Below, piece by piece: positions 1,826-63,538 of a stretch of 64,000 bases of DNA (its first letter is position 1; each line of letters opens with the position of its first letter). The position numbers and the translations under genes were made by a program. The DNA comes from Candidatus Latescibacterota bacterium (GTDB taxonomy: Bacteria > Latescibacterota > UBA2968). The notes under the pieces were generated by a model that saw only the letters and a list, made by a program, of their open reading frames with translations, was not told where the DNA came from and did not search any database. The stretch covers positions 2,688,001 to 2,752,000 of the forward strand of contig OZ242311.1 in NCBI GenBank assembly GCA_965207885.1, given 5' to 3'.

Positions 1826-2878
1826 TCATTGCGGTACAGCGTCGCTGATGAACCCTTCGTTTCTCACCAGGACCTGGAGATCCAGGTTTGTCATAGGGAA
1901 ATCCACCCGGGCGTTGCCCAACCGCTCCGATTCGTGAAGAGAAAGCACCATTTCCAGTGCCGCTCGTCCATCTTCTCCAGTGGATATCGTATCCCGATCG
2001 CGGTCGAGGCTTTCTGCAATCTCCTCTACTGACAACGGGATCACACATCGGCCCCTGTCCGTTGTATTCAGCTTGTGTTCCTCTGGTATTTCGGGGAATT
2101 TTTCCTCTTTATTTTTGACGAAGAGCTTGAACTGACGTGGCCGTGTATTGGCCACCGTTATCCGTCCCCTGGATCCCAACAATTCAAAGAGGTGTTGGGC
2201 GCTCCCTCCGGTGGATCCGTTCACAATGCATTGTACGCCATTTTGAAAATGAAAGTACCCGGCACCACGGGGATCCAGAGCATCCGGATCCACCAGATGA
2301 CCGGTTGCCCACGCGACATCGCCTGCAAAGAAGCGCAGCATGTCGAAAAAGTGGGTTCCGTTATTGGCAAGCCCGGCGCTGTACTGGAGCGTCATCGCTT
2401 GAAGGGAGCCGATTACCTCCTGATCGATTAGCTCCTTAATTTGGCGAAATTGCCAATCCCATCGGCGCGTGTGGTTAATGCTCAGCTTTACGTTGTTTCT
2501 CCGGCAAGCATTAATCATTTCGTCTGCCTCTCGCAACGTAGTCGCCATCGCCTTCTCACAGAATATGGCTTTTACTCCTGACTGAGCCGCGGCAACAACG
2601 ATATCCCGATGCGGAATGGGATAGGTGCAAACACTCACGATATCCAGTTTCTCAGTATCCAGCATTTCCCGCCAATCTGTGTACAGACCCGGAACATCCC
2701 ATTTGCCTCCAAAACTCTGTCGGCGTTTATCGTCCCGATCTGCTGCTGCGACAATACGGGTTCGATCACAGTGATTGTAACAACCCGCATGGGTGTTCGG
2801 CGTTCCGCGATGTGTTTCCTGCTCCAGTAGGCTTGAAATCCTGCCACAGCCGATAACACCAACGTTATAAATTTGCAT
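1826..2878 (-). CDS. Gfo/Idh/MocA family oxidoreductase
   Basis: VGVIGCGRI Rossmann motif, CEKAMA, GTHFFD; start MQIYN at 2878 after ggag. Confidence 0.85.
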   Translation of the reverse strand: MQIYNVGVIGCGRISSLLEQETHRGTPNTHAGCYNHCDRTRIVAAADRDDKRRQSFGGKWDVPGLYTDWREMLDTEKLDIVSVCTYPIPHRDIVVAAAQSGVKAIFCEKAMATTLREADEMINACRRNNVKLSINHTRRWDWQFRQIKELIDQEVIGSLQAMTLQYSAGLANNGTHFFDMLRFFAGDVAWATGHLVDPDALDPRGAGYFHFQNGVQCIVNGSTGGSAQHLFELLGSRGRITVANTRPRQFKLFVKNKEEKFPEIPEEHKLNTTDRGRCVIPLSVEEIAESLDRDRDTISTGEDGRAALEMVLSLHESERLGNARVDFPMTNLDLQVLVRNEGFISDAVPQ

Positions 2879-2959
2879 AGAAAAGCTCCGGGGAAAATCG
2901 TGGGAAGAACTCGTTTTCAAGATCTCAGATCACAATCCAAACAAAGATTTCTACCTTCA

Positions 2960-4087
2960 TCATTGTACCTTCTCGCCTGCTTTCCCGCGGTCTTCCTGCC
3001 GCTCCAGCGGCAGTTCTTGCAAAAATGTCCACTGACGGTCCCCCAGCTTTTGAAGCTGCGATTCGTCGAGTTCCATCCCTAGACCCGGACCTTTAGGCAC
3101 GAGAAGGTAGCCATTTTCGTACTGGACCCGGTGTTTGACAACGTCGTCAATGTAGAGTTGCGCGCCAGCCGCATCGCCAGGGTAATCGAGGTTGGATACC
3201 GATGCGCCCAGATGCGCCTGCGCGGAGGTCCCAATAGAAAGTTCCTGAGTTGTGCCAATCAAGGTGGAGATTCCGGTGGCCTGTGCTATGGCGAAGATCT
3301 GGCGCGATCGTTTGATGCCCTGGTGGCAGGTCGCAATATTGAAGATGTCGACAGCCTGTCCTTCCGCGAAAGCAATGGCCTGGGTCTCGTCGCTGACATG
3401 CTCACTGACCGGGAACCGGATGCGCTCACGCACCTTTGCTTTGCCCGGGATGTCGGGTGCGGGACTTTCAACCAGGATCGGCTCGACCCACTGCAGACGC
3501 TCAATGGCGGCTACGCACGACTTCCAATCAAGTCGGCGGCTGAAGTCCAGTGATTTAACTTTGAATCGATCTCCATAACGATCGCGACACTCATGTAAGA
3601 TCTGATTGTCGATTTCGAGGTTTCCACCCACGTAAAATCGGAACAGGTCGAATCCCAGCTCGAGCATTCGACCGACTCGCTCGACGTTGGGTGCGACGTC
3701 CGCCTCTTCGAATTGTCGAAAGATGGGGTAGCAGATTTTGTAGCGATCTCGGTAAGCACCTCCATAGAGGTCGTGAATTGGAATGCCCAAGCTCTTGGCC
3801 CGAAGGTCGTGAATCGCAATGTCCACACCTGCGCCAATCTGTCCCTTATATCCGTCGACGATCGGATCGATGGCGGTTGGATCGGATGGATCGATTCCGA
3901 TCAACGATTTCCGAAGTATATACTCGAGATGGTTGATGTCGGGTATGTTTCGGATACTGAGGTCGGACATTTCGCCCACACCAACTACACCATCGTCTGA
4001 GATGATACGGGTGATAATGTGAGGACTAAGCGTACCGTTCTCTCGTCTTGTTCCGACTGCAAATAGATCGAGCTCTTTAATGGTCAA
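2960..4087 (-). CDS. Enolase-superfamily dehydratase, galactarate dehydratase II-like (R-x-Y subgroup)
   Basis: GEMSD, CYPIFR, FRFYVG, SLDFS, ESPAP, SEHV and GTTQELS motifs match my recollection of the Oceanobacillus GalrD-II sequence. Confidence 0.75.
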   Translation of the reverse strand: MTIKELDLFAVGTRRENGTLSPHIITRIISDDGVVGVGEMSDLSIRNIPDINHLEYILRKSLIGIDPSDPTAIDPIVDGYKGQIGAGVDIAIHDLRAKSLGIPIHDLYGGAYRDRYKICYPIFRQFEEADVAPNVERVGRMLELGFDLFRFYVGGNLEIDNQILHECRDRYGDRFKVKSLDFSRRLDWKSCVAAIERLQWVEPILVESPAPDIPGKAKVRERIRFPVSEHVSDETQAIAFAEGQAVDIFNIATCHQGIKRSRQIFAIAQATGISTLIGTTQELSIGTSAQAHLGASVSNLDYPGDAAGAQLYIDDVVKHRVQYENGYLLVPKGPGLGMELDESQLQKLGDRQWTFLQELPLERQEDRGKAGEKVQ

Positions 4088-6125: not shown

Positions 6126-6971
6126 TCAAATGCGTGCGAATTTTTGCAGTCGATTGGGTAGGCGGGGCACTTCGGTGACGTAAATATCACCGCGACTATC
6201 AACGCAGATGCCGTGCGCAGGATCGATAAACTGCCCGGGATCTGAGCCTTCCTCGCCCCATCGTGCCAGCAGAGCACCATCCAGGTCAAAAATGCTGACG
6301 CGCTGGGGCGCTTCGGCAATATAGACAATATGATCTGCATCGATGTGTATGTTATTCGGAGATTGGATATCTGTCCACTCCTCTAGAAAGTTCCCATCAA
6401 AATCGAAAAGCTGAATGCGGTGGTTTTCTCGGTCGCTTACAAGCACGCGGTCGCGTGGGTCAATGCATAAATCGTGCGGCAGGGCAAACTGGCCGGGTCC
6501 CGTGCCTTCCTCGCCCCAGGAAAGAATCCGTTCGCCTTTCGCTGAAAAACGATGCACCCGGTGCTGGCCGTATCCATCCGAAACAAAAATCTCACCTGAG
6601 GGAGCGGCCATTGCCTTGGTTGGCCTGTTGAACGGCTCGCCCGGTGAACCTGTTTGGCCTGGCATCCCCAGGGTCTGAAGCACTTCTCCATCCGTGCTGA
6701 AGATACGCACAGTATGATCGTCAACATCCGCACAATAAATTCGATCTGCCGGGTCGATCCAGATATTATGCGGATTTGAGAGCACGTCATCACCCCATGC
6801 ACCGAGAAAGTGACCTTCCGAATCGTAAACCAGAATACCCGCAGGCTCTCGCAGGGTGACATAAACGCGATCCTGCGAGTCAACTGCCACATCGGGCACG
6901 ATCCCACCCATCTCTTTCCCTTCGGGACCTCGTCCCCATCCTTCAACAACGCGGTATTGATAAGTTGCCAT
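6126..6971 (-). CDS. NHL-repeat protein, peptidyl-alpha-hydroxyglycine lyase-like
   Basis: Repeated NHL units: FNRPT, VSDGYG, GQFALPH, DRENHRIQ. Confidence 0.8.
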   Translation of the reverse strand: MATYQYRVVEGWGRGPEGKEMGGIVPDVAVDSQDRVYVTLREPAGILVYDSEGHFLGAWGDDVLSNPHNIWIDPADRIYCADVDDHTVRIFSTDGEVLQTLGMPGQTGSPGEPFNRPTKAMAAPSGEIFVSDGYGQHRVHRFSAKGERILSWGEEGTGPGQFALPHDLCIDPRDRVLVSDRENHRIQLFDFDGNFLEEWTDIQSPNNIHIDADHIVYIAEAPQRVSIFDLDGALLARWGEEGSDPGQFIDPAHGICVDSRGDIYVTEVPRLPNRLQKFARI

Positions 6972-7831: not shown

Positions 7832-7873
7832 TTCTCCGTGAGTTGGGCAATCTGTCGATGTTCGGCTGCCTGC

Positions 7874-16899: not shown

Positions 16900-16938
16900 G
16901 TGGTGTAAGGCGTGGATTGAAAGGCAGAATTGTAGAGA

Positions 16939-16969
16939 ATCCCCACTGGACAACCTATCCAGTGGGGAT
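16939..16969 (-). terminator. Hairpin downstream of the RND operon, probable terminator
   Basis: atccccactgga-N7-tccagtggggat, a perfect 12-bp stem; U tract is weak. Confidence 0.55.
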
Positions 16970-17001
16970 CTGTATCCCAATTTATTCACCATTCTGTTTT
17001 T

Positions 17002-20000
17002 TTAAAATCCGTCTGTCGAACGGCTCAAACTGTACCGGGCATTTGTGACGAGAGAGACAATATCCTCCAGAATCATATACAGACAGGGCACTAACAAAAG
17101 AATTATAGACGTCGCGAAAACAATACCAAATCCGAGAGAGATTGCCATGGGAATGAGATAATAAGCCTGGCGGGATGTCTCCAAAATAATCGGTGTCAAA
17201 CCACCAAATGTTGTCAACGTCGTCAAAATAATAGGCTTGAAGCGCCGAAGCCCAGCAGTGTGAATCGCCTCAAAAGCCGAACTATGGGCACGCCTTTTAT
17301 TTGCATAATCGATCATAATCAGTGAATCATTTACCACAACACCCGACAGGGCGATCACCCCCATCAAACTGATAAGCGACAAATCATAACCGAGCAAAAT
17401 ATGACCGATCACAGCGCCCACAATCCCAAACGGAATTGCCGCCATCACAATCAAGGGTTGGACATAGCTGCCAAATGCAATGGCGAGTAACATATACACA
17501 ATGCCCATCGCCATGGCAAAACCGCCCCATAGCGCCTGCGTTGACTCGCGCATCTCAGCCTGTGTCCCCTGAAATGTCCAGGTTAATCCCGGATACTCAG
17601 CGCGAATTTGTGGCAACACATCGGTTTTAATCGCTTCCATAACGCGCGTCATCGCTCGCTTGGGTTCCACATCCATACTCACCGTCACCACGCGCCGACC
17701 ATCTCGCCGATTAATACTTGTAAACGCTTCGCCACGCTCAATATCTACCACATCCATCAAAGGCACTTCTGTGCCATCAGGTGTACGCACAACAAATTCT
17801 TCGAGATGGCGAATATCCTTTCGCTCTGCCATCGGTAATTTCACGCGCATTTCAATTTCATTTGTACCGCGCAACTGACGCATCGCCAGTGCGCCGAAAA
17901 ATGCATCGCGCAACTGACGCCCTACCTCAACCGGCGTCAATCCCAAATTTCGGCCTTCCGGACGCAACACAAAATCAAACTGCGATTTGCCTTTATTGTA
18001 ATTGTCACTCACATCGTGCGTCTCTTCAAACCCTTCGGCGCGCTCTAAAAATGCCCGACTGGCTTTGGCCAACACGTCAATATCCGAATGGCTCAAATCG
18101 ACACTGATATCCTGTTGCCAGCCGCCCGGCCCACTCTCGGCCTCAAACGTAATCTGACTGACACCATCAATATCCCCGATGTTATCGCGCCATAGTGAGA
18201 TGATCTCTCCTGTCGTCATATCGTGTTCATCGGGCGGTTTCATCACAATTTCTACATCGATAAAACTCCCCCTGCGCACATTGGTTTTAATCCCTTCGGC
18301 CACGCGATAAAGGTTGTGCGCTTCAAACATGTGATGGGTCGATTCGGTCACATCATGTGCAACCCGCGCAGCTTGATCCCGCGTGGTCCCCACAGGCAAT
18401 CGGATACCCGCTTCAATCTCATCGGCAGAAACTTCGGGCATCATAATCATACCCATATGATCGCTGTATCCATAACCGCCCACCATCATCAGCAAAGCAA
18501 TAGCAGATGCAATCGTAACGTACCGATGCCGAATGCAGACATCCAGAAACCTGCGATAGTGTTGGTCGATAAACCGATTGAAATGGCTGGCAATAGATTG
18601 TTGCCAGCGATGCGCAGTGCCATTTACCGGCGAAACAGCGCGTTTTGAAAGGTGCCCGAGATGCGCAGGCAAAATAAACAGCGCCTCCAAAAGAGACACG
18701 GCCAGCACAGTGATCACAACCGCGGGCAATGGCCACCAGAATTTTCCCGTGGTGCCGGGCATAAACAAAAGCGGCAGAAAGGCCACAATCGTAGTCAAAA
18801 TGCTGAACGTAACCGGCCTGGCAATATCGCGTGTACCCGCAATGGCCGCCTGCATCGGACCCATACCTTGTTCCCGATATTCATGCACATTTTCACCCAC
18901 AACAATCGCATCATCCACCACAATGCCGAGCACCACCAAAAATGCAAACATAGAAACCATATTGATGCTCACATCAATAGCAGGCAGAAACACCAGACTG
19001 CCTATGAAAGAAATGGCCATCCCCATCATCACCCAAAATGCAAGCCGAAACTCGAGGAACATCGCCAGAATAAGCAAAACAATCACAATAGCCAGCACCC
19101 CGTTTTCGATCAGCAAAAACAACCGATCTTTGTAATCCTCTGCACTGTTGCTGTCGATCCGATACTTCACACCAGGCGGCAGGGTGGTCTCAAAATCTGC
19201 CATGATATTTTTAACAGCCTCGGCAATCTCAAGTGGCGATTGATTCCCAATCCGATAGATATCCACACCAACTGTAAGCTGCCGATTAAACCGTTCGTGA
19301 AATCCGCCTTCTTCAAAGCCATCCGTGATCTTTGCCAGGTCCGCCAGTGTAACCCCACCACCTCCTTCTGAAGGGATAATCACAATACGACCATATTCAT
19401 CGGCCCACTGCTTGCGCTCTTTCATGCGCAACAAAATTTCACCCGTACCCGTCTCCACAGAACCCGCAGGAATGTCTTCACTCGACGAAACAATCACGCG
19501 TGCCACATCGCGTAGTGTAAGACCGTATTCACGCAACCTGTGCTGGGGAATTTCAATATGCGTCCTGTATTCTGGCACATTGCCAAGCTCGACCTGTGTA
19601 ATGGTCGGATCGCTCAGCAATCGATCCCTTAGCTGTTCGGCCAGACTTCTCAGCGTACCGATATCTACATCGCCATACAGCCCAATATCCATCACATTGC
19701 GCTGTTGTGCCCTCAGGCTGACTTCGGGTTGTTCTATATCATCGGGAAATGTCCGAATCCGATTGACTGCCTGATCAATATCCTGAAAGGCTTTCCCCCG
19801 GTTGGTGCCTGCCACCAGTTCAATGGTCACACTCCCACGCCCCTCGCGAGCCTGCGACGTCATTTCCATGATCCCCTGCACACCGCGCACAGCTTCTTCT
19901 ATCGGCTGTAAAATCCCCTGCTCCACCTCCGCAGGTGCCGCACCCGGATAGCCCACGCTGACCGAGACGATATCCAGTTCATACTGCGGATAGACCTCCT

Positions 20001-20136
20001 TCTGGATATGAAAAGCTGTCCAGATCCCGCCCAAAATGAGGATGATCATAAACAGATTGGCCGCAATAGCATTGCGCGCCATCCAGGCAATCGGACCTCG
20101 TGTTTCTTCAAATGTATCCTGTGTCTCATTCATCAC
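17002..20136 (-). CDS. RND efflux permease (AcrB/AcrD/AcrF family)
   Basis: 1044 aa, [32 protein letters not shown]. Confidence 0.95.
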
Positions 20137-21332
20137 CGGGTGTCTCCCAGGGTTTTAGGATCTTCCTCTCCAACGCTTTTCACACGCAATTCTGCACCAT
20201 CAGCGACTCGAGACAAATTGGTCGTAACCACCCGATCCTTATCTTGCAACCCATCCGATATATAAGCATAGTCGGCATCTTGAAAAACGATCTCAACAGA
20301 CCGAATCCGCAACAGACCGTCTTTCATCACCCAGACCGTATTGCCAGCCCGGATATAATCGCGTGCCAGACGCACCACATTGGGAATTTCGTTGGCCTCA
20401 ATATGCGTCTCGACAAATGCGCCAATCATCAACGGAGATAGATGATCAGATCCATCCCGATGAGCAAGCGGGTCAGAAACGGAAACCAGTACCTGCGCCA
20501 TACGCGTCTTTTCTGCCAATGCACCAATGAGTCTGTGAAGAGAGCCTGTGCGATAAGCACCTTTTTTTTGGGTCACACGATTGCGAATCTGCACCAACGA
20601 TCCCTTTTCTGCCTCGCTGCTGGGAAAAGAAAGCCACGGAATTTTGGAAAGCGGAACGGTCGTCACCACCCAGTATGTATCCAGACCAACCAGACGCCCG
20701 AGATTATCGCGTGGAGAAACCAGAGAACCCACATTGGCATTGCGACTTAAAATGTGCGCGTCAAAAGGCGCTTTAATGGTTGTTCTCTGCAATTCCAGTT
20801 CAGCCTGATTCACTGCCGCCTGCGCCGCTTCTACCCGTGCCCGAGCTGCATTGAGCTGAGGTTGGCGCAGCACAAGCGCCTCAAGCTCACCCGACAGCGT
20901 CTCATTCAGAATCTGATAATCTTTCTGCGCCACATTCTGCCGTCCCATCTCAATATTCAAATCAGCAGTGGCACGACGCAGATCGCTCTTTTTTTGCAAA
21001 AGTGCATTCTGATAATCTGCCGGATCAATCTGCAACAGTACCTGACCCTTTTTGACAAACCCACCCGGCGTAAAAGTTGATGACAGCGAAAGTACCCGTC
21101 CACCGACTTGTGGACTCAAGATGATATCCTGTTCTGCTTCAACCGTCCCCGTCGCCACAATCACAGGGCGATACGTACCGCGTTGCACCTCAAACACATC
21201 GACGAGCATCGCGGTTTTCTTAGTCGCCGCAACGCGAGTCGCCGTAGGCTCCGTCATAAAAATCAACGCAGTAATACCTGCACCCACAACCAGAATACAA
21301 AAACAAATAATCAACCCTTTTTTGCTATCCAC
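20133..21332 (-). CDS. RND efflux periplasmic adaptor (MFP)
   Basis: N-terminal TM segment, lipoyl-like [16 protein letters not shown]; overlaps the permease start. Confidence 0.9.
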
Positions 21333-21339
21333 GTTATGC

Positions 21340-22719
21340 CTATCCGTTTATGTTATTACGAGCAATTTCAAAACCACCTGCGAGCGCCCGATAAAGCGCA
21401 ATGCGGAATTCCAGCAAATCGAGTTTCGCAGAGATCAACCCTCGCCGGAGCCTCTGTTCGTTTGTCAGCGCGGTGAGCACGTCGAGATAATCGCTGATGC
21501 CATTTAAATACTCCAGCCTTAACTGATCATACGTCTGCCTCACCAGAGCGACCTGCGCTTCGAGACTCGCGATGCGTTCAACCTGTTTTTGTTCTTGAAC
21601 CAATGCATTTTCCACTTCGGCAAATGCCGTCAAAACCGTCTGTCCATAAGCCGAAAGTTGCGCGCTTTTGTTGGCTTGATTGCGCTTGATTTCTGATCCC
21701 CGTTCACCACCATCGATAACAGGTAGCAAAAGATTGCCTATCAGATTGCCCACCCAATCTTTAAACAGACCACCGCGATCATCACCCGATGCCAATGCTG
21801 CCAGGCTCAAACGCGGATACCGATTGCTGATAGCAACCGCCACATCGCGATCCGCCGCCAGCAGCAGGTTATAAGCCCTTTTGACATCTGGACGCCGCTG
21901 AATCAACTCAACAGGCAAACCCGTATCCGGCAGAGGTGGCAGATCTGGCAAGGCGTGATGCGTGTAGGCAATGCCATCCTGAGGGGCATAGCCCGACAAA
22001 ACAGCGAGTTGGTGTTCTAATACCTCGATTCTGGATTCTGTCGCGATTTGTTGTTCGCGTGTGGATTCGATCAATTGCCTTTGTCGCAAAATATCCACAC
22101 TGCGAATCTGCCCACTGCCAAAACGCGCTCGAATCAGACTCAGCACTTGCTGATTGGTCTCGATCTGATGCTCAAAAAGTTCGTGCTGACTTTGTGCTTC
22201 CATCAACTGAAAATAAGTACGCACGACCTCTGCTGAAAGCGACAATGCCGCAGTCTGATAATCCGCCTCAGTCGCCCGCATTCGATAATGCGCGGCATCC
22301 ACACCCGAACGAATCCGCCCCCACAGATCTATTTCGTATTCGGACGTGATGCCCAAACGGATCTGCGCATTATTTTCAGAATCGGGACGTTGAACCTCAC
22401 CGCGCCCGGATACTTCCAGCGTTGGAAACCGACCAGCCCCTTCGCGATCCACAACAGCCTGTGCACTTCGCAACCGATGCCACGCCGTCTCCAAATTGAA
22501 ATTGGACTGCAATGCGCGATCGATCAGGCTGTCCATACGCGTATCTCCAAAAGCGGTCCACCACCGTTCAGAAGGCGCATGTGAGACATGACTGGAAAAA
22601 GCTGTGGGAGGTTCAAAAGGAAGGGTAAGATTTGCAGACCTGGGCGAACACCCAAAAACAAACACGGGCCAGATCAAAAGAAACAAGCGAACATATAGCA
22701 TGTGTAAGATAATTTCCAA
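21340..22719 (-). CDS. Outer membrane efflux lipoprotein (TolC/NodT family)
   Basis: Lipobox-like VFGC, YEIDLWG, RRPDV, LYRALAGG. Confidence 0.9.
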   Translation of the reverse strand: MEIILHMLYVRLFLLIWPVFVFGCSPRSANLTLPFEPPTAFSSHVSHAPSERWWTAFGDTRMDSLIDRALQSNFNLETAWHRLRSAQAVVDREGAGRFPTLEVSGRGEVQRPDSENNAQIRLGITSEYEIDLWGRIRSGVDAAHYRMRATEADYQTAALSLSAEVVRTYFQLMEAQSQHELFEHQIETNQQVLSLIRARFGSGQIRSVDILRQRQLIESTREQQIATESRIEVLEHQLAVLSGYAPQDGIAYTHHALPDLPPLPDTGLPVELIQRRPDVKRAYNLLLAADRDVAVAISNRYPRLSLAALASGDDRGGLFKDWVGNLIGNLLLPVIDGGERGSEIKRNQANKSAQLSAYGQTVLTAFAEVENALVQEQKQVERIASLEAQVALVRQTYDQLRLEYLNGISDYLDVLTALTNEQRLRRGLISAKLDLLEFRIALYRALAGGFEIARNNING

Positions 22720-22830: not shown

Positions 22831-22902
22831 TTATTTTCCAGGCGGGCAGATCGGGTCTATCTTGTCCGCTTTATCGAGCTCGCCGTCGGCAACATTCTGT
22901 TT
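22831..22902 (-). pseudogene. 3'-end remnant of an aldo/keto reductase allele
   Basis: Reads KQNVADGELDKADKIDPICPPGK* versus KQNAAAADGELDKATLDKIDTICPSGKSA* at the end of 37031..37969. Confidence 0.85.
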
Positions 22903-22911
22903 GGAGCGGCC

Positions 22912-26959: not shown

Positions 26960-27195
26960 GTGGACGCTCCCAACTCTACGGTTTCGTGTGGTTCGTCGCA
27001 GCGGAAAACGACGAGTTTGCCGCTGTCGATGCGGTTTTTCACATCTCGCACGAATTCGCGGGCGAGGTTGGTATCGTAGAGTACCAGGGCGCCCGGTGAC
27101 TGTGTGTGGGTTTGGAGTCGCTCCGATTTTTCGCTCCAGGTCGATTGAAGCGCGTCGGATGCATCTCCCTCAGCGATAAGAATGACGTATGCCAT
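26956..27195 (-). CDS. Small hypothetical protein
   Basis: 79-aa ORF filling the gap, with an ATGA overlap into the next gene. Confidence 0.45.
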   Translation of the reverse strand: MAYVILIAEGDASDALQSTWSEKSERLQTHTQSPGALVLYDTNLAREFVRDVKNRIDSGKLVVFRCDEPHETVELGAST

Positions 27196-27228
27196 GTGAT
27201 CTTTCTTTATTGTGTCCTCATAGAAGCG

Positions 27229-28071: not shown

Positions 28072-28251
28072 GTCTCAATCCTTTCGGTTATCAGGGATAT
28101 TATACCTAATTATGCGAGCTTTTGTTCAAAAAATATGTCGGTTGCACGATGGATCAAAAACATGGCAGCAGGCTCGTCAAAAGTCAGTTGGTAGTCAACG
28201 CCATCGAGCGTATCTTCAATGAGCCGTCTTCAGCCATTGAGGAGGTCAACT

Positions 28252-30105
28252 ATGGTCGCGGATACAGAACTCCGCAAACAGCACCAGCGTGATGCGATCC
28301 TTCGAGATCGTATGCGGAAGGCATTTGACATGGCGTACGACACGGATGCTGCGCTCATCGTCCGCTGGAATCCGTTCTTTCCCCGTTTCAACGGCCACAC
28401 CGTCGCCCAGCAATCCCTGGACTACGCCATCCTCTTGCTTCTGTCCGACGACCGCACCTACGGGACGGACGATGCCGGTGAGGCCAACCGAATCATTCGC
28501 CGAATCCTGGACCACCAGGACCTGCGACCGAAGTCCGAAACCTTCGGCAATTTCTTCTGGATGACCCACTGGGACCGGGTTAAAGACAAGAACGCCGTTT
28601 CCTTCCTCACGATCGGCCTGGTCTTCACGTACGTCAACTTCCAGGACAAGCTGGAGGATGACACGAAGGCTGCGCTCGAGCGCGCCTTTCCAAACGTGTT
28701 GCTCGGCATCCGTGACCACAAAGTCCGATGGCAGTACACCAACATCTACTTTCTCAACCTCGGCGGCCTGGTCAGTCTTGCCCGTGTGCTGGACGATCCA
28801 TCGATCCACGCCGAAGCGGTGGCCGACTTCAACACCTGGGTCGAAGGCACTTCGGAGGACGGCTTCCATGAATTCAACAGCCCGACGTACACACCCGTCA
28901 CGCTTTCAGGTATGGAAGCGGCGTGGGCTTACACGCCAGATGGCGAGTTCAAAGACAGGCTGCGGCGCACCATGGATTTGATCACCTATCAGATGGCGCT
29001 CAACCTGATGCCCGGTGGATTTCTGGCGGGTGCTGCCGCAAGGGCTTACCAGGGAGATGTGCTGAACGGTTCAATCGGGGCTGCTTCGTATGCCCACGTT
29101 AAATTTGGCACCCCTGCTCCGGCCGAGCTTGCGGTCCTGATGCCGAGCCTGTTCGACTACGTACCGCCGGAACCTGTTCGGTCCCTGGCGAACGAGATGG
29201 CGGACGGAGCCGAAATACTCGATCGGGGAATCTCGCTGGGTAGTCGTCGGACCCACGTCATTACGCAGGCTTACGGGCTGGCATCTCAGAGTTTACAATC
29301 TGTGGGCGGCCACTCGCCTCCGTCGTATATCCTGCTGGTCCGGAACAGCAAGGCCCTGCGACCCAGTGTCCCGTTCCTTCCGGACGAATCCTTTACGCAT
29401 CAGCCGTGCGCCACATTTCTGTCGCGTCAGAACGGCAGTCAGGTGGTCGGCAGACTGTACTACGATCTGCAGGAGGAGCAGCGAAGCAAGTTTCTGGACG
29501 ATCCTGCGTTCTTTTGTGAACCTCGCGTCCTGTTTGGACTGAGGGACCAGATCGAGTCCGTTCGCATTGGCAATGTGGATTGGGGCGGAAAACCCGTGAG
29601 CCTTTTGCCAGGGCAATCCGTGGCTGTTTCCTATGGAGATATCTACCTGGGTGTTGTCGTCCTGCTGCTAGACTGTGACGGTCAAGCGATTCGTAGCCGC
29701 GCGACGCTGGCCTATGGCGAAGACGGTGAACTGCGCTTGCGAGTCAGACTCCACGGGGGAGAGGATGTGCAGCAGGAAGATAACCCGCTCGTCGCTCTGC
29801 TCTACGTCGAAGTTCAGGTTCCCGAGGAGAGCGATTCGCTCGAGACATTTGCCGACCAGTTGTCGGGCTGGCAGCTTTCCGATCAGAGCGACGGAGAGAC
29901 GGTCTCCTTCTTGGCCGAGCACGAAGATGGCGCAACCATCGCCTATCCCTACACAGAGGCGGATCCGGATCCGATGGGCGATGCTCTGCACCTATCGCCC
30001 GGGCTTGCGCTCCAGCCGGGAGACTTTGTCAAGCTGGTGAACGGGGAGAAGCCTTTGCTCTTCGGCTCTGCACAGCAAAACCGGCTTCTTCGAGAAGGTG
30101 TATAA
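28252..30105 (+). CDS. Uncharacterised helical-toroid protein (heparinase/lyase-like), inverted relative to the array
   Basis: RBS gaggagg before ATG 28252; YTNI and EFNSPTY motifs; its C-terminus runs into an antisense gene remnant. Confidence 0.55.
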   Translation: MVADTELRKQHQRDAILRDRMRKAFDMAYDTDAALIVRWNPFFPRFNGHTVAQQSLDYAILLLLSDDRTYGTDDAGEANRIIRRILDHQDLRPKSETFGNFFWMTHWDRVKDKNAVSFLTIGLVFTYVNFQDKLEDDTKAALERAFPNVLLGIRDHKVRWQYTNIYFLNLGGLVSLARVLDDPSIHAEAVADFNTWVEGTSEDGFHEFNSPTYTPVTLSGMEAAWAYTPDGEFKDRLRRTMDLITYQMALNLMPGGFLAGAAARAYQGDVLNGSIGAASYAHVKFGTPAPAELAVLMPSLFDYVPPEPVRSLANEMADGAEILDRGISLGSRRTHVITQAYGLASQSLQSVGGHSPPSYILLVRNSKALRPSVPFLPDESFTHQPCATFLSRQNGSQVVGRLYYDLQEEQRSKFLDDPAFFCEPRVLFGLRDQIESVRIGNVDWGGKPVSLLPGQSVAVSYGDIYLGVVVLLLDCDGQAIRSRATLAYGEDGELRLRVRLHGGEDVQQEDNPLVALLYVEVQVPEESDSLETFADQLSGWQLSDQSDGETVSFLAEHEDGATIAYPYTEADPDPMGDALHLSPGLALQPGDFVKLVNGEKPLLFGSAQQNRLLREGV

Positions 30106-30137
30106 TTCGGTTGGCAGCTTTAATGTAGTTCTCTCGG
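30066..30137 (-). pseudogene. 3'-end remnant of a TIM-barrel isomerase allele
   Basis: 70/72 nt identical to 32022-32093; both differences are synonymous. Confidence 0.9.
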
Positions 30138-31452: not shown

Positions 31453-31514
31453 ATACGTTCTCCTTTGCAAGATTCATCACTCATCGGAATTATTAGGCTG
31501 TACATAGATCCCCA

Positions 31515-32006
31515 TCAGGTCGCCGGCAGCAGGCGGATTGTCAGAAATCCTGTGATTCCCGACCAGGAGTGCCCATGGATCCCTACTTTTCCGTTTGACC
31601 AGGGCTGCTTGACGATCCAATTTTCGATAATCTCGTATCCGTCCTTGATATTGCGTTCGCTAAAGGCGGCAAACGCCCCACCCGAAGCGCCAGTCCCGCG
31701 CAGCGACGCACTCACAGTGATGTAGCGCTCCCCGTAGCGATCGCCTCTATATACCGGCCGGCTCGCTTGAGGATAACCGCTCATCTCCAGGATGGCCGGC
31801 CACTTTTGAATCTGATCCTGCGGATCGAATCCTTTTGGGTACCCTACAGCTACAGCGATCTTTACACCATCGGACATCGTGGCATAAGTAAACTCGACGT
31901 AGTTGCCGTCCTTATCCAATTTGATATCGGCAAAACACCAAACCGGAGCGGCAAAAAGGACAAGTAGGAAGACGATTACATTTTTTATGTCGTTTGGTCG
32001 CAGCAT
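31515..32006 (-). pseudogene. Truncated CocE/NonD family hydrolase (5' portion only)
   Basis: Signal peptide, MSDGVKIA, RGTGASGG and WSNGKVGIHGHSWSG nucleophile elbow, then ends about 13 aa later. Confidence 0.8.
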
Positions 32007-32887: not shown

Positions 32888-33730
32888 TTAATTTTTGAGG
32901 TCAGCAGCGTCTTCAGCACTCCACTGTTCCCACATCAGCTCATCTGGTTGCATAAATCCACTATTGGCTCGCCGAAATACTTTTTCATCTTCTCCCAATA
33001 AACGCAGCAATCGACGATCTCCAGTCGCTCGCGCTCGCGCTTTGACAGCCTCAGAAATCGGCCCAGAATAATTGGCTCTGTGTTTGAGCCAGGAATGATT
33101 CATCGTTAAAAAGAAAAGATACCGATAGTTCTTTGAATAATTGGCTGTTCCCGAGTGTACAATCGCATTGTGGAATACGGCTATATCTCCAGATTTGGGA
33201 TAAAGGATCACTTCGTCGGGATGGGGTTGTTTTCTTTCTTCTTGTGTTAAAGTCAGGGCTTTCATGTGAGAACCTGGAATAATTCGCAGGGGGCCAATTT
33301 CATCATCGAGATCCTGTAAATAGCTCAGGGCATTGAAGAGTAAAGGTCTATGGTAGATGCCTTCTTGAGGAAACTCGGCAAACATGTCCCGGTGAAAACC
33401 CAGTACCGGGTTTGTGTTTGGGTCCTGTGGTGCCGTGCGCCGGTATGTGATGGATTCGAGTTGGACATGAGGTCCGACGATCATTTCAGCAAAGTCCAGG
33501 AGGCGCTTATTTGACAAGGCTGAGAGAATGAGATCGGGTTTGTGTTCTAACACATCGACAAAGACCTGGGGCCGGCTGCCATCGGGAGTGGGGATGCGAT
33601 CACCGATTTCTTCAAATGAATCCCGCATGGCTTTGACCCAGACATCGTCCAGCATCTTTGGGAAAAGTGTAAATCCAACTGTTTTGAATTCGTCAAGATG
33701 TTCCTGGAGAGATTTGATATCTTCTCGCAT
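32888..33730 (-). CDS. PhyH family dioxygenase
   Basis: FHRD, PLRIIPGSH, GDIA, VHSG. Confidence 0.85.
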   Translation of the reverse strand: MREDIKSLQEHLDEFKTVGFTLFPKMLDDVWVKAMRDSFEEIGDRIPTPDGSRPQVFVDVLEHKPDLILSALSNKRLLDFAEMIVGPHVQLESITYRRTAPQDPNTNPVLGFHRDMFAEFPQEGIYHRPLLFNALSYLQDLDDEIGPLRIIPGSHMKALTLTQEERKQPHPDEVILYPKSGDIAVFHNAIVHSGTANYSKNYRYLFFLTMNHSWLKHRANYSGPISEAVKARARATGDRRLLRLLGEDEKVFRRANSGFMQPDELMWEQWSAEDAADLKN

Positions 33731-37020: not shown

Positions 37021-37030
37021 AATGATTTCT

Positions 37031-37969: not shown

Positions 37970-37982
37970 GATATTCCTCCGT

Positions 37983-38831: not shown

Positions 38832-38898
38832 AGGTTGACTCCTTTCCAGTCTCTGTAGATGTGTAACAGTTTTGTAGGCGAGTTGAAATGTTTGTCCT

Positions 38899-41409: not shown

Positions 41410-41412
41410 AAA

Positions 41413-41580
41413 ATCACTCCTTATCATAACCTGTTTTTCGATCTCCATCGACTTCCTTAGACCAGGTCGCGTACAGTTCCCAGGCATTAATGCTTTTCAT
41501 CTCTTATCCTGTCTCTGTGGATGTGTAAAAGGGCTGATCACGATATTCGGGTAGGAACCGCTGTTGTTATCACCCATCAT
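41413..41580 (-). pseudogene. Mosaic spacer of four gene/leader remnants
   Basis: MMGDNNSGSYPNIVI start; 22/25 match to 38845-38869; 17/18 match to 47631-47648; 30/34 match to 47655-47688. Confidence 0.75.
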
Positions 41581-42887
41581 CACGATCCTTTCGCCCGTTG
41601 AAACCAGTCAATGAGTTGGCTTTTAAGATCGTTATAAATCTCAGGATATTGACTGGCCAAATCATTGGCTTCGCCAATATCCTGATCGAGCTTGTACAAT
41701 TCAAATTGCAATTCTTCAATAGCCGGAATAGCCTCGGCAAATTGCCCGCGATGATTAGGGCCTGTACCAACCAGTTTCCAATCGTCTTTTACCGCTCCCA
41801 TTTTCCCAAACAAATCCCAAAACACATACCGTCCTGGCAAATCTTCTTGCCCATGTGATCTCAAATGCGCAAGCAAACTCACTCCATGAACTGGATGCTG
41901 TCCATTCATTTTGGGAATCTCAATGCCAGCCGCATCCAGCACAGTGGCAAACAAATCAAAATGCACAGCACCTGCATCAGATACCATCCCTTTGGGAATA
42001 ACACCCGGCCACTGCATCACCGCAGGCACGCGGATTCCACCTTCATATGTCATTCCTTTTTGCCCGCGTAAAGGGCCATTATTGCCCGGAAATTTATCAA
42101 TCATTGCACCATTATCGCTCAAGTAGATGACAAGTGTGTTATCTACGATAGCCAACTCATGCAATGTCGCCATGATTTTACCCACACCATCATCCATATG
42201 ATCCAGCACCGCACAATAGTCGCGCTTGGGGAACTCAATACCGCGATCTTCATACTTTTTTAACCACTCGGCTTTGCCCGATGTTTTGGGTGCCTGTTCT
42301 CGCCACAAGGGACCATGCACAGCATTGTAAGGCACATAACAAAAAAACGGCTTATCACGATGTTTCCGAATAAAGTCAATCGCATAACCAGTAAACACAT
42401 CCGTCAAATGATCTTCATGCACCATGGGCTGGTCATTGTGCAAAAGGCGACTACCATCAAAAGGCCAATAGGGGTGTGCACCACCCAAAAATCCGACAAA
42501 TTCTTCAAAACCGCGTTCATTGGGCACATTGGGTGCATCATATCCCAAATGCCACTTGCCAAACATGCCAGTTTTATATCCTGCTTCCTTCAAAAACTCG
42601 GGCAAAAGTTTTACATCATCATGAATGCGCCTTGGCAACGTATCTGTTTTCTGCCCCGGCAGTGATGGGCCACGCCACATGCCGCATTCCAAAGAATACT
42701 GCCCAGAAAAAAGAGATGCACGCGTTGGCGCACAAAGTGGATTGACCCTAAACTGTGTAAAACGCACCCCATTTTTTGCAATCGCATCCATCGTTGGTGT
42801 ATCGACCTCTGTATCCCAATAACAACCCGCATCTCCATACCCCTGATCGTCTGTAACAATGATGAGAAAATTTGGTTTTGTGGCCAT
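41580..42887 (-). CDS. Sulfatase (Cys-type) with chimeric 5' end
   Basis: PNFLIIVTDD, CAPTR, GKWHLG; 42841-42895 is 54/55 identical to 48988-49042. Confidence 0.9.
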   Translation of the reverse strand: MATKPNFLIIVTDDQGYGDAGCYWDTEVDTPTMDAIAKNGVRFTQFRVNPLCAPTRASLFSGQYSLECGMWRGPSLPGQKTDTLPRRIHDDVKLLPEFLKEAGYKTGMFGKWHLGYDAPNVPNERGFEEFVGFLGGAHPYWPFDGSRLLHNDQPMVHEDHLTDVFTGYAIDFIRKHRDKPFFCYVPYNAVHGPLWREQAPKTSGKAEWLKKYEDRGIEFPKRDYCAVLDHMDDGVGKIMATLHELAIVDNTLVIYLSDNGAMIDKFPGNNGPLRGQKGMTYEGGIRVPAVMQWPGVIPKGMVSDAGAVHFDLFATVLDAAGIEIPKMNGQHPVHGVSLLAHLRSHGQEDLPGRYVFWDLFGKMGAVKDDWKLVGTGPNHRGQFAEAIPAIEELQFELYKLDQDIGEANDLASQYPEIYNDLKSQLIDWFQRAKGS

Positions 42888-42892
42888 AATGA

Positions 42893-43339
42893 TCATTCCT
42901 TGAGTGCGGCAGCATCCTCAGCGATCCACTTCGATCCAGTCGTGCCACTCGCCGGTCCGGTTGTCTTCGGTGTTGTGTACCACATCCCAGCCGTGTAGTC
43001 CGGGTACGGGTAGTATTCTGAGTCAAAGGGATAGAAATGGATCTTGCCAAACGCGCCGGTTCGCCACCCGGCCATCTGCAATGTCTTCATAAAGGTGGGG
43101 ATGTCGGGATTGAGTCGGTAGCCATTGGAGAGCAGACCGTGGCCTCGGCTGGTGAGTCCCGTGGCAATGCCCGCCCGAGCCGGACAGCAGACCGGGTTGT
43201 TGGAAAATGCATTGGTGAAGGTTACGCCCATGCTCTGGAGGCGTTTCAGGTTCGGCAGGTCGCAGATGCCGTTCAGGGCCGCTTCCAGCCACTTCGCCCC
43301 CATCTGATCGATGATGTTGGGTTTGTTTTGTGACTGCAT
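42893..43339 (-). pseudogene. Collapsed sulfatase-sulfatase-PhyH pseudogene
   Basis: First 8 codons match the gene starting at 37020, the body matches the 5' part of the gene starting at 35357 with deletions, and the tail WIAEDAAALKE* resembles WSAEDAADLKN* ending at 32888. Confidence 0.9.
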
Positions 43340-43401
43340 AATGACTCCCCTGATGCGCTCTTTGAGCTTTTTAGTCGATAATCTTTGTTTCTACAGTCAT
43401 T

Positions 43402-47642: not shown

Positions 47643-47645
47643 CTC

Positions 47646-49034: not shown

Positions 49035-49063
49035 AATGATCACCCGCTCCAATCCCCGCATTG

Positions 49064-50560: not shown

Positions 50561-50610
50561 TCTATATGGTCAGGTAACCAGACCATGGTTCGCTTCTATT
50601 TCCTCTGTTC
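50561..50610 (-). repeat. Intergenic 50-nt repeat, copy 1 (copy 2 at 55938-55988)
   Basis: Differs from copy 2 by 2 substitutions and 1 indel; sits directly upstream of an RBS in both places. Confidence 0.9.
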
Positions 50611-55937: not shown

Positions 55938-55988
55938 TCTATATGGTCAGGTAAACCAGACCCTGGTTCGCTTCTATTTTCTCTGTTC
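55938..55988 (-). repeat. Intergenic repeat, copy 2 (reads as a gene 3' end, TEKIEANQGLVYLTI*)
   Basis: Matches 50561-50610. Confidence 0.9.
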
Positions 55989-56003
55989 CGGCCCCTATCT
56001 TTT

Positions 56004-56078
56004 TTAGACAACCGGCCTGATTTCAGGCGCGCGCGTTCCACTTGTTCCTGCGTTAATATTTGCTCCATTACATCTCCA
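56004..56078 (-). pseudogene. Fused 5' and 3' PhyH remnants
   Basis: RBS plus MEQILTQEQVER (ATG 56068) joined to APEIRPVV*, 25/29 nt to 61039-61067 with 4 synonymous changes. Confidence 0.85.
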
Positions 56079-56111
56079 GAAAATCAGTATTAATAAAAAC
56101 ACAGAGGGATT

Positions 56112-60039: not shown

Positions 60040-60041
60040 CG

Positions 60042-60339: not shown

Positions 60340-60801
60340 TCAAGATGACACGTCTCTATTTCCTCCCAATTCGTCTACATCGGCGAGATCTTTGGGGCGA
60401 GCGGAGGCGCGTTTGTTTTTAATAAGATCTGCCAGAGAAATATAGAACACGGGTGTTTCTCCATAAATTCCAGAGATGCGATTCTGCCAGACCTCTTCAA
60501 ACGTAAGGCCACTGATGCTGTTCATCATTTCGATTCTTACAGGCGCAATCCCCATTCTAACAATGTTGCCAGAATCGGCAAACTCTGTGGCTTGCGCTTC
60601 AGTTGTAGCCAAACCGAATCGGTCAAGTGCATGGCGAATGTGATTGATATTTTCTCGGGTATTTCGAAAAAAGAGATCCAGATCATCGGTTGCTCGGGCA
60701 TAGCCATGGAATGCAACAGCATATCCACCGACAATCACAAATTCAACTGTCTCCGCGTTTAACAATTGTAAGAACTCTTCGAAGTCGTTGTGGATATTCA
60801 C
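60340..60801 (-). CDS. Nucleotidyltransferase-fold protein (DUF6036-like)
   Basis: VGGYAVAFHG, RATDDLD, KRASARPKDLAD. Confidence 0.75.
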   Translation of the reverse strand: MNIHNDFEEFLQLLNAETVEFVIVGGYAVAFHGYARATDDLDLFFRNTRENINHIRHALDRFGLATTEAQATEFADSGNIVRMGIAPVRIEMMNSISGLTFEEVWQNRISGIYGETPVFYISLADLIKNKRASARPKDLADVDELGGNRDVSS

Positions 60802-60934
60802 GGTGGGTTACCTTACACATCTCCTGGCGTAAATCCTCAAGGAGCGAAACGCGTTCGTCCCCTGTAAGATGTCGGGTATGGTCGCAGGCTTTTTCATTGG
60901 GATCAAATTTTGAAATTGTCAGAACACGTTTCAT
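60743..60934 (-). CDS. Small protein paired with the nucleotidyltransferase
   Basis: 63 aa with RBS gagg; LTGDERVSLLEDLR pattern; overlaps the NTase start. Confidence 0.55.
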   Translation of the reverse strand: MKRVLTISKFDPNEKACDHTRHLTGDERVSLLEDLRQEMCKVTHREYPQRLRRVLTIVKRGDS

Positions 60935-60973
60935 AGGACAAACCTCAAAGGAATAACTTCACCAACACAAATG

Positions 60974-61002
60974 AATATAGCCCATCAGCATAAGCGCGTC
61001 AA
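60974..61002 (-). promoter_or_regulatory. Sigma70 promoter of the small protein/NTase pair
   Basis: TTGACG-17-TATATT. Confidence 0.6.
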
Positions 61003-61038
61003 CGAATCACAGAAATATCAAAAAGATTTGATTCCTTC

Positions 61039-61893: not shown

Positions 61894-61924
61894 TGTTTGC
61901 TCTCCTTTCATTTTGGCGCGGTGG

Positions 61925-63538
61925 TCATTCTCCCGTAACATTCGGGATGAGTGCCGACAAGCCCAGGTTTGTTAGCCGCTCGATTTCCTCCTGGAGTTCG
62001 TCGCCCTCCAGCGGACCCGCGTAGGGGGCCTGCTCGAAGCGACATGGAGACTCCACCAGGCGTGGGTCGTCGTTCTCCCGCAGAAGACCCATAAGTTCGT
62101 TCGCCAGGTCTTTGCGGATCTGCTCGTAGTCCGGGTTCGTGGCGACATTGTTCATGTAGTGGGGATCGACCCGAAGGTCGTAGAGTTCCTCTCGAGGACG
62201 CTTGCCGAAGCCGATTTCAAAGAGGGGCTGTACATCTTCGTCGGCGCGGTGGTGAATCATCCAGGCCTTGGTTGGCCCCCCATCCATGTCGGAATACGCC
62301 GGGCGCGAACTGGCCAGGAGACTGTCCCAGGACGGCGCATCCGCATTGGGGTCGTCGAGCCCTCGCGGGTCCCCCACGGGCCAACGGTCGGGCTCAAAGT
62401 TGTGGATGTAGAGAAAGTCCCGGGTGCGGATCGCACGCATCGGATAAGGCATGCCATCTCTCGCCATGACATTGTGGCGCTCCCGCCCCGTAACGACGGC
62501 CGTGCGCTCTGCTTCTACCTGTCCACTCCTGTTGCTTTCGAGCACAGGTAGAAGGCTGCGAGCCGTCATGCTGTCTGGGATGTCAACGCCCGCGGCGTCG
62601 AGGAAAGTGGGCGCCAGATCCATCAGGTTGACGAAGTCATCGACGACGCGGGCGGAAGGGATGCGTTCCGGCCACCGAGCGGCCAGCGCTACCTCGCAAC
62701 CGATGTTGTAAAGGTTGCACTTGGCGCGCGGGAAGCCCGGAATGCCGTGGTCCCCACTGACGACGATGAGTGTATTGTCCAGCTCGCCGATGGCCTCGAG
62801 GCGCTCGATCAGGACACCCAGACCAGCATCTACCGCCAGACACTCACCCAGATAGTCGTTCACGTCTTCACGGATGTCGTGGACGTCGGGGAGGAAGGCC
62901 GGAAGGCGACCTTCTAGGTCGTCGGGCTCCAGCCCCCATAGCGCCTTGCCGGAACCGCGCTCCCAGGTTCGGTGGGTGTTGGTCGGACCCCACCAGTAGC
63001 AGAAGGGCTTTCCCTTGGGCCTCGCCTCCAGAAAGGCGTCGAAGTTCTGCCGCGTCTCTTCGAGGAGCATCTCTTTGGCCCCGTCGATTCCGAGTTCAGA
63101 TGCCCGTTCGGTCGCGACGTGGGAGAAGCGGTTGTACAGCCTGCCTGCCTGCTCGTACCGCGTGCGCTCTGCGCCGTAGGGGGCGTTCATGGTCCTTCCC
63201 GGAGACCAGACCTTGTACGTGTACCCGATGTGGTAGCCATTTTCCTCGAGAATGAGGGGATAGGTCGGAATGGTCTCGTCCCACACAGCGCCCTGCAGGA
63301 TGGCGCCGAGGCCCGTCTGCCAGAAGTACTGCCCCGAGAGGATGGAACTCCGGCAGGGCGTGCAACTGGGCGCCGGAACAAAGGCGTTTCGGAAGAGCAC
63401 ACCTTCCTTGGCAATCCGGTCGAAGTTTGGGGTGTCGAGGAGTGCGTTAATCGCGTTTTCGCCCTCGACGGGACGGTATGCGCTGGCATAACGTCCCCAG
63501 TCGTCCGCAAAGGCAAAGAGTATGTTGGGGGGCATCAA
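61925..63538 (-). CDS. Sulfatase (N-sulfoglucosamine sulfohydrolase-like)
   Basis: PNILFAFADD, CTPCR, GDHG, GRERH, YPMRAIRT. Confidence 0.9.
   Translation of the reverse strand: MMPPNILFAFADDWGRYASAYRPVEGENAINALLDTPNFDRIAKEGVLFRNAFVPAPSCTPCRSSILSGQYFWQTGLGAILQGAVWDETIPTYPLILEENGYHIGYTYKVWSPGRTMNAPYGAERTRYEQAGRLYNRFSHVATERASELGIDGAKEMLLEETRQNFDAFLEARPKGKPFCYWWGPTNTHRTWERGSGKALWGLEPDDLEGRLPAFLPDVHDIREDVNDYLGECLAVDAGLGVLIERLEAIGELDNTLIVVSGDHGIPGFPRAKCNLYNIGCEVALAARWPERIPSARVVDDFVNLMDLAPTFLDAAGVDIPDSMTARSLLPVLESNRSGQVEAERTAVVTGRERHNVMARDGMPYPMRAIRTRDFLYIHNFEPDRWPVGDPRGLDDPNADAPSWDSLLASSRPAYSDMDGGPTKAWMIHHRADEDVQPLFEIGFGKRPREELYDLRVDPHYMNNVATNPDYEQIRKDLANELMGLLRENDDPRLVESPCRFEQAPYAGPLEGDELQEEIERLTNLGLSALIPNVTGE

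Follow-up and report, generated by a model that had tools for sequence, protein, structure and literature searches.

We analysed a window of 64,000 nucleotides (nt), the whole stretch at bases 2,688,001-2,752,000 of the single 6.23-Mb contig that makes up the genome of a Candidatus Latescibacterota bacterium (G000). The window carries a long array of sulfatase, dioxygenase, and other enzyme genes, and we found that this array is turned over gene by gene among related genomes and that pieces of genes are left as scars, well beyond what chance would produce. The window probably forms the central part of a large flexible genomic island that owes its changes to general recombination rather than to specialised machinery for moving cassettes; no new recombination machine is revealed. 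Judging from their predicted products, the genes of the island appear to serve the catabolism of glycans and sulfated compounds in a sponge-associated lineage of Latescibacterota. The single-gene scale of the changes, the scars that make their history readable, and the signs of cassette sharing among co-resident lineages give a junction-by-junction view of how the sulfatase and dioxygenase repertoire is remodelled in an uncultured sponge-associated bacterium. They also provide a concrete and testable case of flexible metabolic islands that arise without integrases or transposons.

A simple map of open reading frames (ORFs, denoted by g numbers) placed 50 ORFs in the window, 45 of them on the minus strand. 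The intergenic spacers are 2-381 nt long, many only 2-60 nt, and six pairs of ORFs overlap. The array is as follows.

1826..63538, minus strand: co-oriented array of about 45 single-enzyme genes (ORF map, Pfam, and strand map)

In a strand map from -80 to +140 kb, the minus-strand run extends to about window +107 kb, which gives a total array of more than 100 kb. According to Pfam, the window has 13 sulfatase ORFs, including one fragment of 148 amino acids (aa), and eight PhyH-type dioxygenases.

Gene order among related genomes

Parts of the window were matched in 17 of the 18 other genomes of the genus, and the locus was compared in 12 genomes of the genus and in two further loci. Each of these differed from the window in gene order and content, with the same genes at 85-100% identity. 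A preliminary description, made from the letters of the window alone, had proposed that single genes are repeatedly inserted, replaced, and deleted here, and had suggested comparing order and content across strains. Turnover of this kind, involving one gene or a small block at a time and including duplications as well, was borne out by all 12 genomes and both loci.

Genes g8 and g9 have exchanged positions in G006, G015, G004, G002, and G012, and the RND efflux block has changed places with g19-g21 in G008, G003, G007, G015, and G004 and lies elsewhere in G006. Genes g11-g13 are absent from G015, G004, and G002, and g24-g27 from G010; in G010, G008, and others, g27 is placed between g33 and g35. 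There are two positions for the g28-g27 block, A and B: the window has both genes at A and the fragment g34 at B, G007 has both at B, and G010 and G008 have g28 and a 38-nt stub of g27 at A and g27 at B. A duplication of g1-g4, the first copy of which has decayed, was seen in G008 only among the compared genomes, and G010 has two alleles of g42, which are 88.8% and 96.6% identical to that of the window. Variation was seen at least from window -13 kb as far as +98 kb. All the genomes retain a broad g1-to-g50 backbone, and no window cassette was inverted in any of the 12.

We counted 146 distinct new joints. At 43 of them the two sides abut with 0-13 shared nt, and 15 lie in shared stretches of 16-417 nt, which are the ghosts (recurring gene ends) described below; the remaining class is taken up where the explanations are weighed. 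Fifty-four of the 91 breakpoint clusters are within 30 nt of an ORF boundary, compared with 7.0 +/- 2.5 (maximum 15) for random placement. The control regions, around rpoB and in three 20-kb segments chosen at random, were collinear in all five relatives tested, interrupted only by insertion sequences (IS) or insertions like miniature inverted-repeat transposable elements (MITE), and by small indels.

The window is not the only reshuffled place in the genome. A genome-wide tblastn search with probes from the window found about 196 sulfatase-like and 83 PhyH-like loci, and the window, with 13 sulfatases, is the densest in sulfatases. Both of the other sulfatase arrays tested in five relatives (960001-980000 and 3405001-3425000) were reshuffled too, and the behaviour is not confined to this locus. 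These 0.96- and 3.41-Mb arrays show gene-scale gaps and local swaps, the array in which a gene is found can differ from genome to genome, and G004 and G015 have one segment in inverted orientation.

Gene fragments in the spacers

The preliminary description had listed eight sites at which spacers carry fragments that recur elsewhere in the window. All eight were recovered, seven by BLAST and one, at 38845, weakly (26/31 nt). The recurring fragments and other gene remnants are listed below; all are on the minus strand, and the matches in brackets are from self-BLAST of the window unless stated otherwise.

7846..7872: duplicate of a stretch inside g11 (11481-11507), within the g8-g7 spacer (27 nt, 96%)
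22833..22908: aldo/keto reductase remnant, the last ~29 codons of g30 (37031-37969), directly downstream of g19 (22833-22891 with 37039-37103, 65 nt, 81.5%)
30066..30137: duplicate of the 3'-terminal 72 nt of g26 (32022-32093; 72 nt, 97%), both differences synonymous
31471..32006: g25, N-terminal 163-aa piece of an S15 peptidase (Pfam and protein search)
32888..32925: stub, the last 38 nt of g27 (genus comparison)
38839..38869: 31-nt leader upstream of g31, resembling 41501-41531 upstream of g32 (weak match from outside the self-BLAST, 26/31 nt, 84%)
41443..41506: ghost of the g38 tail (41443-41488, resembling 47650-47698), then an 18-nt ghost of the g37 start region (41489-41506, resembling 47631-47648), upstream of g32 (41447-41480 with 47655-47688, 34 nt, 88%)
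42831..42895: 5' end of sulfatase g33, resembling the 5' end of sulfatase g38 (48978-49042; 65 nt, 94%)
42893..43339: g34, composite sulfatase fragment of 148 aa (ORF map, Pfam, and self-BLAST; 42930-43311 with 34929-35317, 389 nt, 93%; 43310-43344 with 36991-37025, 35 nt, 97%)
55938..56108: internally deleted PhyH remnant of the g48 type (self-BLAST, genus comparison, and protein search; 55938-55988 with 50561-50610, 51 nt, 94%)

Among spacers of at least 25 nt, five of 29 had a non-self match within the window at E<1e-3, compared with a mean of 0.04 and a maximum of one in 100 dinucleotide shuffles. When the spacers were searched against the whole genome, all matches at E<1e-4 fell within the window. 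Moreover, 15 of the 16 repeat copies are in contact with a breakpoint cluster, where copies placed at random would give 2.5 +/- 1.4 (a contrast partly confounded with gene boundaries). This agrees with the earlier view that the fragments are scars of the events.

That view had also held that several fragments differ from the intact gene only at synonymous sites. This is true of the two copies of the g26 tail (two synonymous and no non-synonymous changes) and largely of g34 and g28 (16 synonymous and two non-synonymous among 18 changed codons, plus seven gap columns), and it does not extend to all fragments: the 5' ends of g33 and g38 differ by three synonymous changes and one non-synonymous change, and four other comparisons were mixed. 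The orphan gene starts or ends that had been noted at 2925, 43371, 53591, and 60042 gave no informative source at the protein level. The spacers with the last three had no match among 10,712 ORFs from the genome and the loci of five relatives. The spacer at 2921-2959 had a 13-aa match to an overlapping ORF in G008, which we judged to be spurious; many other matches in this search were likewise to overlapping ORFs in orthologous spacers. The spacers with orphan sites coincide with breakpoints in relatives.

Where they lie side by side, as in G004, the convergent genes g23 and g26 share an overlap of about 47 nt. The opposite strand of 30066-30137 encodes the final 40 nt of g23, a plus-strand gene. 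In the window the overlapping tail of g26 is present twice because g24 and g25 lie between g23 and g26, and 30066-30137 and 32022-32093 form a direct repeat flanking these two genes (1956 nt). In G004, G015, G002, G012, G007, and G003, g23 directly abuts g26 with one copy of the tail, and the metagenome runs X1, X5, and X19 contain a variant that has 15 nt in place of 30048-30181, that is, a variant without this copy. Gene g25, together with the last 11 codons in the spacer at 31480-31512 and a 19-aa piece at 28161-28217, is what remains of a gene for a 630-aa S15 peptidase, of which G015 has an intact copy.

The remnant at 22833 matches g30 over 29 aa at 69% identity. As a full g30 lies at exactly this site beside g18 in G015, the tail is most simply read as a deletion remnant. 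The fragment g34 is made up of a start like that of g29 (35 nt, 97%), a part like g28 (nt 98-486, 93%), and a tail of the g27 type (38 nt), and its stop codon overlaps the start of g33 (ATGA). Full copies of g28 and g27 occupy this position in G007, and g34 would be the leftover of a second g28-g27 block. Its differences from g28 are mostly synonymous, and therefore g34 probably diverged while it was still functional. The g27 stub persists alone beside g26 in at least eight relatives, and four of them have the identical joint 32925|33786.

The bodies of g33 and g38 have diverged beyond their shared 5' end, and in G015, G004, G017, G002, and G014 it is g33 that lies upstream of g37, in the place that g38 has in the window. 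The joint from 47648 to 41489, with 18 shared nt, was found in five genomes, and joints in G003 and G014 overlap the leader at 38839-38869. The PhyH remnant consists of a start stub (56031-56108) and of a tail with the downstream leader (55938-56038); this leader recurs at 50561-50610, upstream of g39, and in G006 the genes g44, g48, and g39 are intact in that order. For annotators, many of the short ORFs and 'leaders' in this region are remnants.

Proposed routes of gene turnover

Starting from the rearrangements, the stubs, the classes of junction, and the absence of integron parts, all of which were observed directly, we infer as follows how the events succeeded one another, what part selection played, and by which route DNA was exchanged. 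Segmental duplications would take place within the co-oriented array, and therefore orientation would be kept. Redundant or dispensable copies would then be deleted, the deletion ends having microhomology of 0-13 nt. Stubs would survive where they overlap the coding end of a neighbour, lie upstream of the next start, or keep the frame open to it, and may supply the ribosome-binding region of the next gene. Several ghosts are simpler to explain as remnants of a redundant duplicate than as the ends of a donor's neighbouring genes, as had been supposed.

Sulfatase paralogues may in addition trade their bodies through junctions in conserved N-terminal motifs, with the other junction just past the stop codon. 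In the case of a chimeric gene in G004, a sulfatase body whose counterpart is in the 3.41-Mb array of G000 is placed in the 0.96-Mb array. It follows the leader and the first ~6 codons of the resident gene; one junction coincides with the P-N-I codons, and the other falls 2 nt beyond the stop codon. The start of g34 and the 5' ends of g33 and g38 resemble this pattern.

Finally, related lineages that live together may exchange whole cassettes or alleles, with homologous recombination taking place in the neighbouring genes that they share. Between species that differ by ~7-9% in core DNA, there is 100% identity over stretches of 332, 114, and 280 nt, GC content at third codon positions varies from gene to gene, and the runs X5 and X19 each contain many alternative joints that match the arrangements of other genomes of the genus. 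The earlier suggestion of a shared allele pool gains from these stretches, from the identities given below, and from the co-occurrence of arrangements in single sponge runs, and an exchangeable pool is plausible on the sequences compared. Selection for intact, co-transcribed genes would concentrate the surviving breakpoints at gene boundaries.

Several points weigh against this explanation. Eighty-eight of the 146 joints carry 1-145 nt of letters that are absent from the matching site of the window; some of the other joints lie in shared sequence, as had been proposed. The precision with which breakpoints fall at gene boundaries is far above random and may have causes besides selection. The 27-nt piece of g11 at 7846 is not accounted for by a single deletion, and the sampled genomes contain no donor closer to g34 than 93.6%. 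A genome-wide scan for short conversion patches at sulfatase 5' ends gave 48 patches, mostly 26-32-nt matches in conserved motifs or overlaps between adjacent genes as extracted. The segments of the island are 93.4-96.0% identical to five relatives, 2-4 points above the control regions (85-95%, mostly 90-93%), a gap that is only suggestive since the former were taken from high-scoring segment pairs filtered at >=84% and >=300 nt and the latter are rounded. The alternative joints in the metagenome runs were matched at 90% likeness and possibly come from other species in the sample. All the genomes are metagenome-assembled, with strain mixing possible at individual junctions. Nor does the window stand out in its own genome: by crude counts it has six short high-identity local repeats, where about 32 of 97 genome windows have at least six, and three spacers that match local genes, where about 24 of 97 have at least three. 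The window is upper-middle and not extreme by both counts, and the frequency of matches, which is above that of shuffles, is not above that of other loci of the genome.

De Vries and Wackernagel in 2002 and others are reportedly the sources cited for homology-facilitated illegitimate recombination. This process has been described for DNA uptake and, in the part of the source considered here, joins DNA at one end within a short anchor, either homologous or homeologous, and at the other end illegitimately (PMC6382021). The chimeric sulfatase of G004, the start of g34, and the 5' ends of g33 and g38 resemble it, and the uptake genes ComEC and DprA are present; in contrast to the process as described there, the anchors here are very short conserved motifs, and uptake is a putative route (PMC6382021). 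ComEC and DprA were also found in 10-11 of 14 control genomes and hence are little informative. Of the machinery that the preliminary description had suggested looking for, these competence genes are present, and neither RecT nor a nearby tyrosine recombinase was found; Ku, too, was not found in the genome.

The closest described kind of system is the additive flexible genomic island. In the portion of the Alteromonas pangenome study that we draw on, such islands are hotspots that take up cassettes through illegitimate recombination, different species have cassettes that are nearly the same in sequence, and a tRNA/tmRNA or integron is present at six of eight hotspots without being obligatory (PMC4898812). 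The locus resembles them, as they are described there, in its equivalent location across relatives with different numbers and kinds of cassettes per genome, in gain by illegitimate recombination, in its metabolic content, and in having what looks like a toxin-antitoxin cassette (PMC4898812). Cassettes there are above the core in similarity and do not follow phylogeny, and the values here (93.4-96.0% versus ~90-93%, with stretches of 100% identity) may point the same way (PMC4898812). Compared with that account, however, the hotspot here has no tRNA/tmRNA, integron, or integrase, and consists mostly of single-gene units with 2-60-nt spacers in one orientation over more than 100 kb (PMC4898812). 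It also differs in its prominent gene-end stubs and paralogue chimeras and in the presence of several arrays per genome (PMC4898812). Gene-by-gene shuffling of such arrays was not met in titles and abstract openings of the literature on Latescibacter-sponge-sulfatase or sponge symbiont-sulfatase-PhyH, which is no proof of its being unpublished.

Alternatively, the lineages might each have pared down one large ancestral array with old duplicates, while neither gaining genes nor exchanging them with one another any longer. In birth-and-death evolution, tandem multigene families change by unequal crossing-over. The array resembles such families in its orientation-preserving duplications and deletions, reciprocal differential loss, pseudogene stubs, chimeric paralogues, and very large families. 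Unlike them, it mixes many unrelated enzyme families, and therefore most neighbours are without homology that could drive unequal crossing-over. Pure differential loss fits the broad g1-g50 backbone, the many differences that are presence or absence with stubs, and the paralogous positions of g27, g28, g30, and g42. It does not fit the 100% identical stretches between species that are ~7-9% apart in core DNA, an island identity above control in all five genomes, the heterogeneity of GC3 (GC content at third codon positions), a sulfatase body that occupies a different array depending on the genome, or, if it is recent, the duplication of g1-g4 seen in only one of the compared genomes. On balance we regard differential loss as an unlikely sole cause.

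General recombination could also take a more radical form, in which several open arrays of more than 50 kb are shuffled gene by gene without a site-specific recombinase, start motifs (K-P-N-I in the sulfatases) and stubs serve as handles, and co-resident lineages trade cassettes. We consider this rather improbable; if true, it would be a recombinase-free functional analogue of the integron, by which the repertoire for glycan degradation is adjusted to the host.

The preliminary description went further and held that the locus works like an integron, capturing genes without integrase or attC, with the scars as portable homology anchors that direct single-gene swaps from an allele pool. Like integrons, including sedentary chromosomal ones, it is a co-oriented array of single genes whose order and content vary among relatives and which contains a toxin-antitoxin-like module. 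Integron cassettes are co-oriented, mostly lack promoters, and are read from a common promoter; here co-orientation is strict, with 45 of 50 ORFs on one strand and no cassette inverted in the 12 genomes. The 15 joints in shared stretches that are ghosts, the 15 of 16 repeat copies at breakpoints, the cassettes that are more similar than the core, and the variants that co-occur in single samples speak for the same idea.

Each cassette of an integron is followed by an attC site, an imperfect inverted repeat of about 57-141 nt, and pdif modules are flanked by pairs of ~28-nt XerC/XerD sites. In contrast to integrons, we found no intI or attC here, the boundaries are irregular (stubs of 18-486 nt, filler, or microhomology), and the spacers are often too short for a site. 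No integrase or transposase family was matched by the 50 ORFs in Pfam, as had been stated for the array, no adjacent IntI was found at the window, and the four tyrosine recombinases (PF00589) of the genome are at 0.66, 1.70, 4.84, and 5.82 Mb, the nearest ~1 Mb away. The 25 longest inverted repeats are mostly intragenic, with no recurring boundary pattern and no attC-like repeat (this was not a covariance-model scan), and the window has no Rfam family and no tRNA/tmRNA. As for pdif-type sites, many spacers are too short and no short inverted repeat recurs at the boundaries, where no direct search for the dif motif was made. With no dedicated enzyme, site, or regular cassette boundary, and with most joints having microhomology or filler, a system that works like an integron is not supported. 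Several ghosts are passive remnants of genes still at the site in sister genomes. The joint at the g27 tail is identical in four genomes, which points to inheritance and not to re-use as an anchor for later swaps. The two other arrays tested behave likewise, and the density of ghosts is unexceptional within the genome. We regard an anchor-directed array of this sort as improbable.

Mobile elements, of the TnpB/IS200-IS605 family or other IS, could have served as recombination substrates or as sources of breaks: TnpB copies (at least 10) are found at -24 kb, at +70 kb, and inside the RND operon of G008, and the loci of G006 and G012 contain IS-like repeats. We think this very improbable. The 64-kb window itself contains no IS, TnpB, or transposase, although copies bounding the mobile units would be expected in an IS-bounded island; the joints lack flanking element ends, breakpoints within the window appear to have no spatial association with element copies, and control segments with IS or MITE-like insertions (L030 and L032) are unchanged in order.

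That the rearrangements are chimeric strain joins made by assembly is hardly credible at all: the genomes are all metagenome-assembled, and the run that is the likely source has short-read contigs that end at the repeats, but the genome is a single 6.23-Mb contig, and other genomes, assembled independently, contain the same scars and joints. These are also present in contigs from a separate study (X1), which span 31117-35151 and 35184-43145 with three and six differing letters, and therefore the order of the window is real. Only the parts of the window covered by contigs served as evidence in this comparison.

Further features of the window and the genome

Two further features of the window are blocks of more than one gene.

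16929..22719, minus strand: genes g16-g18 of an RND efflux operon (Pfam) and, downstream of them, a conserved segment with a hairpin (16929-16975), travelling together as one block
60340..61038, minus strand: DUF6036/DUF2204 nucleotidyltransferase g47 and a small upstream ORF (family search and genus comparison)

The latter two genes look like a toxin-antitoxin pair within the array, and 60706-61037, in the g47 region, is 100% identical in G015. The first 22 codons of the small ORF recur at the start of a 374-aa ORF 467 kb away. We considered this match as a TnpB stub and rejected it, as the two proteins have no BLASTP match.

By Pfam, the window also contains pairs of GFO/IDH/MocA oxidoreductases, MR/MLE enzymes, xylose-isomerase-like TIM barrels, and CN-hydrolases, one aldo/keto reductase, one SDR, and pectate-lyase-like and beta-helix proteins, in addition to the one RND operon and the one DUF6036 nucleotidyltransferase. 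The flanks add seven PhyH genes, three sulfatases, and BNR, alginate-lyase, PL4, and esterase genes. GC3 per gene spans 0.38-0.80, also between neighbours, in a genome with 51% GC. Window DNA is present in sponge metagenomes from eight studies.

The sulfatases in 8588-63538 mostly start straight at the K-P-N-I region of the catalytic domain without a signal peptide, and among the window sulfatases only g9 has a Tat-like leader; so many putatively cytoplasmic sulfatases are unusual. Other dense sulfatase arrays are near 0.96, 3.39-3.43, 0.32, and 2.62 Mb. The plus-strand gene g23 (28219-30105) encodes a 628-aa protein that matched no Pfam or NCBIfam family; its nearest relatives outside the genus, at 50-69% identity, are in Chloroflexota, Gemmatimonas-labelled, and 'Zipacnadia' metagenome-assembled genomes. 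Two corrections to the ORF map concern a gene of ~90 aa that is absent from it and occupies the 269-nt 'spacer' at 26960-27228 (93% to a 132-aa ORF of G015), and g5, the start of which was over-called, the true gene at 6126-6971 being a 281-aa NHL-repeat protein.

The TnpB element is ~1.3 kb long, encodes a 374-aa RNA-guided nuclease of the TnpB family (NF040570, E 2.9e-95), and has at least 10 copies in the genome. Two of them are at L033:5802-6926 (window +69802..+70926) and at window -24447..-23308, and in G008 a copy interrupts the RND operon between g17 and g18. A repeat of ~150 nt at L032:8439-8595 (genome position ~5,208,439) has dozens of copies in relatives at 76-95% identity and looks like a miniature inverted-repeat or similar element. 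The region 5,760,001-5,824,000 contains 553 local repeat pairs, far above any other 64-kb window. The cumulative GC skew has several turning points, with a minimum near 5.8 Mb and a maximum near 1.15 Mb, and this irregularity suggests past large rearrangements.

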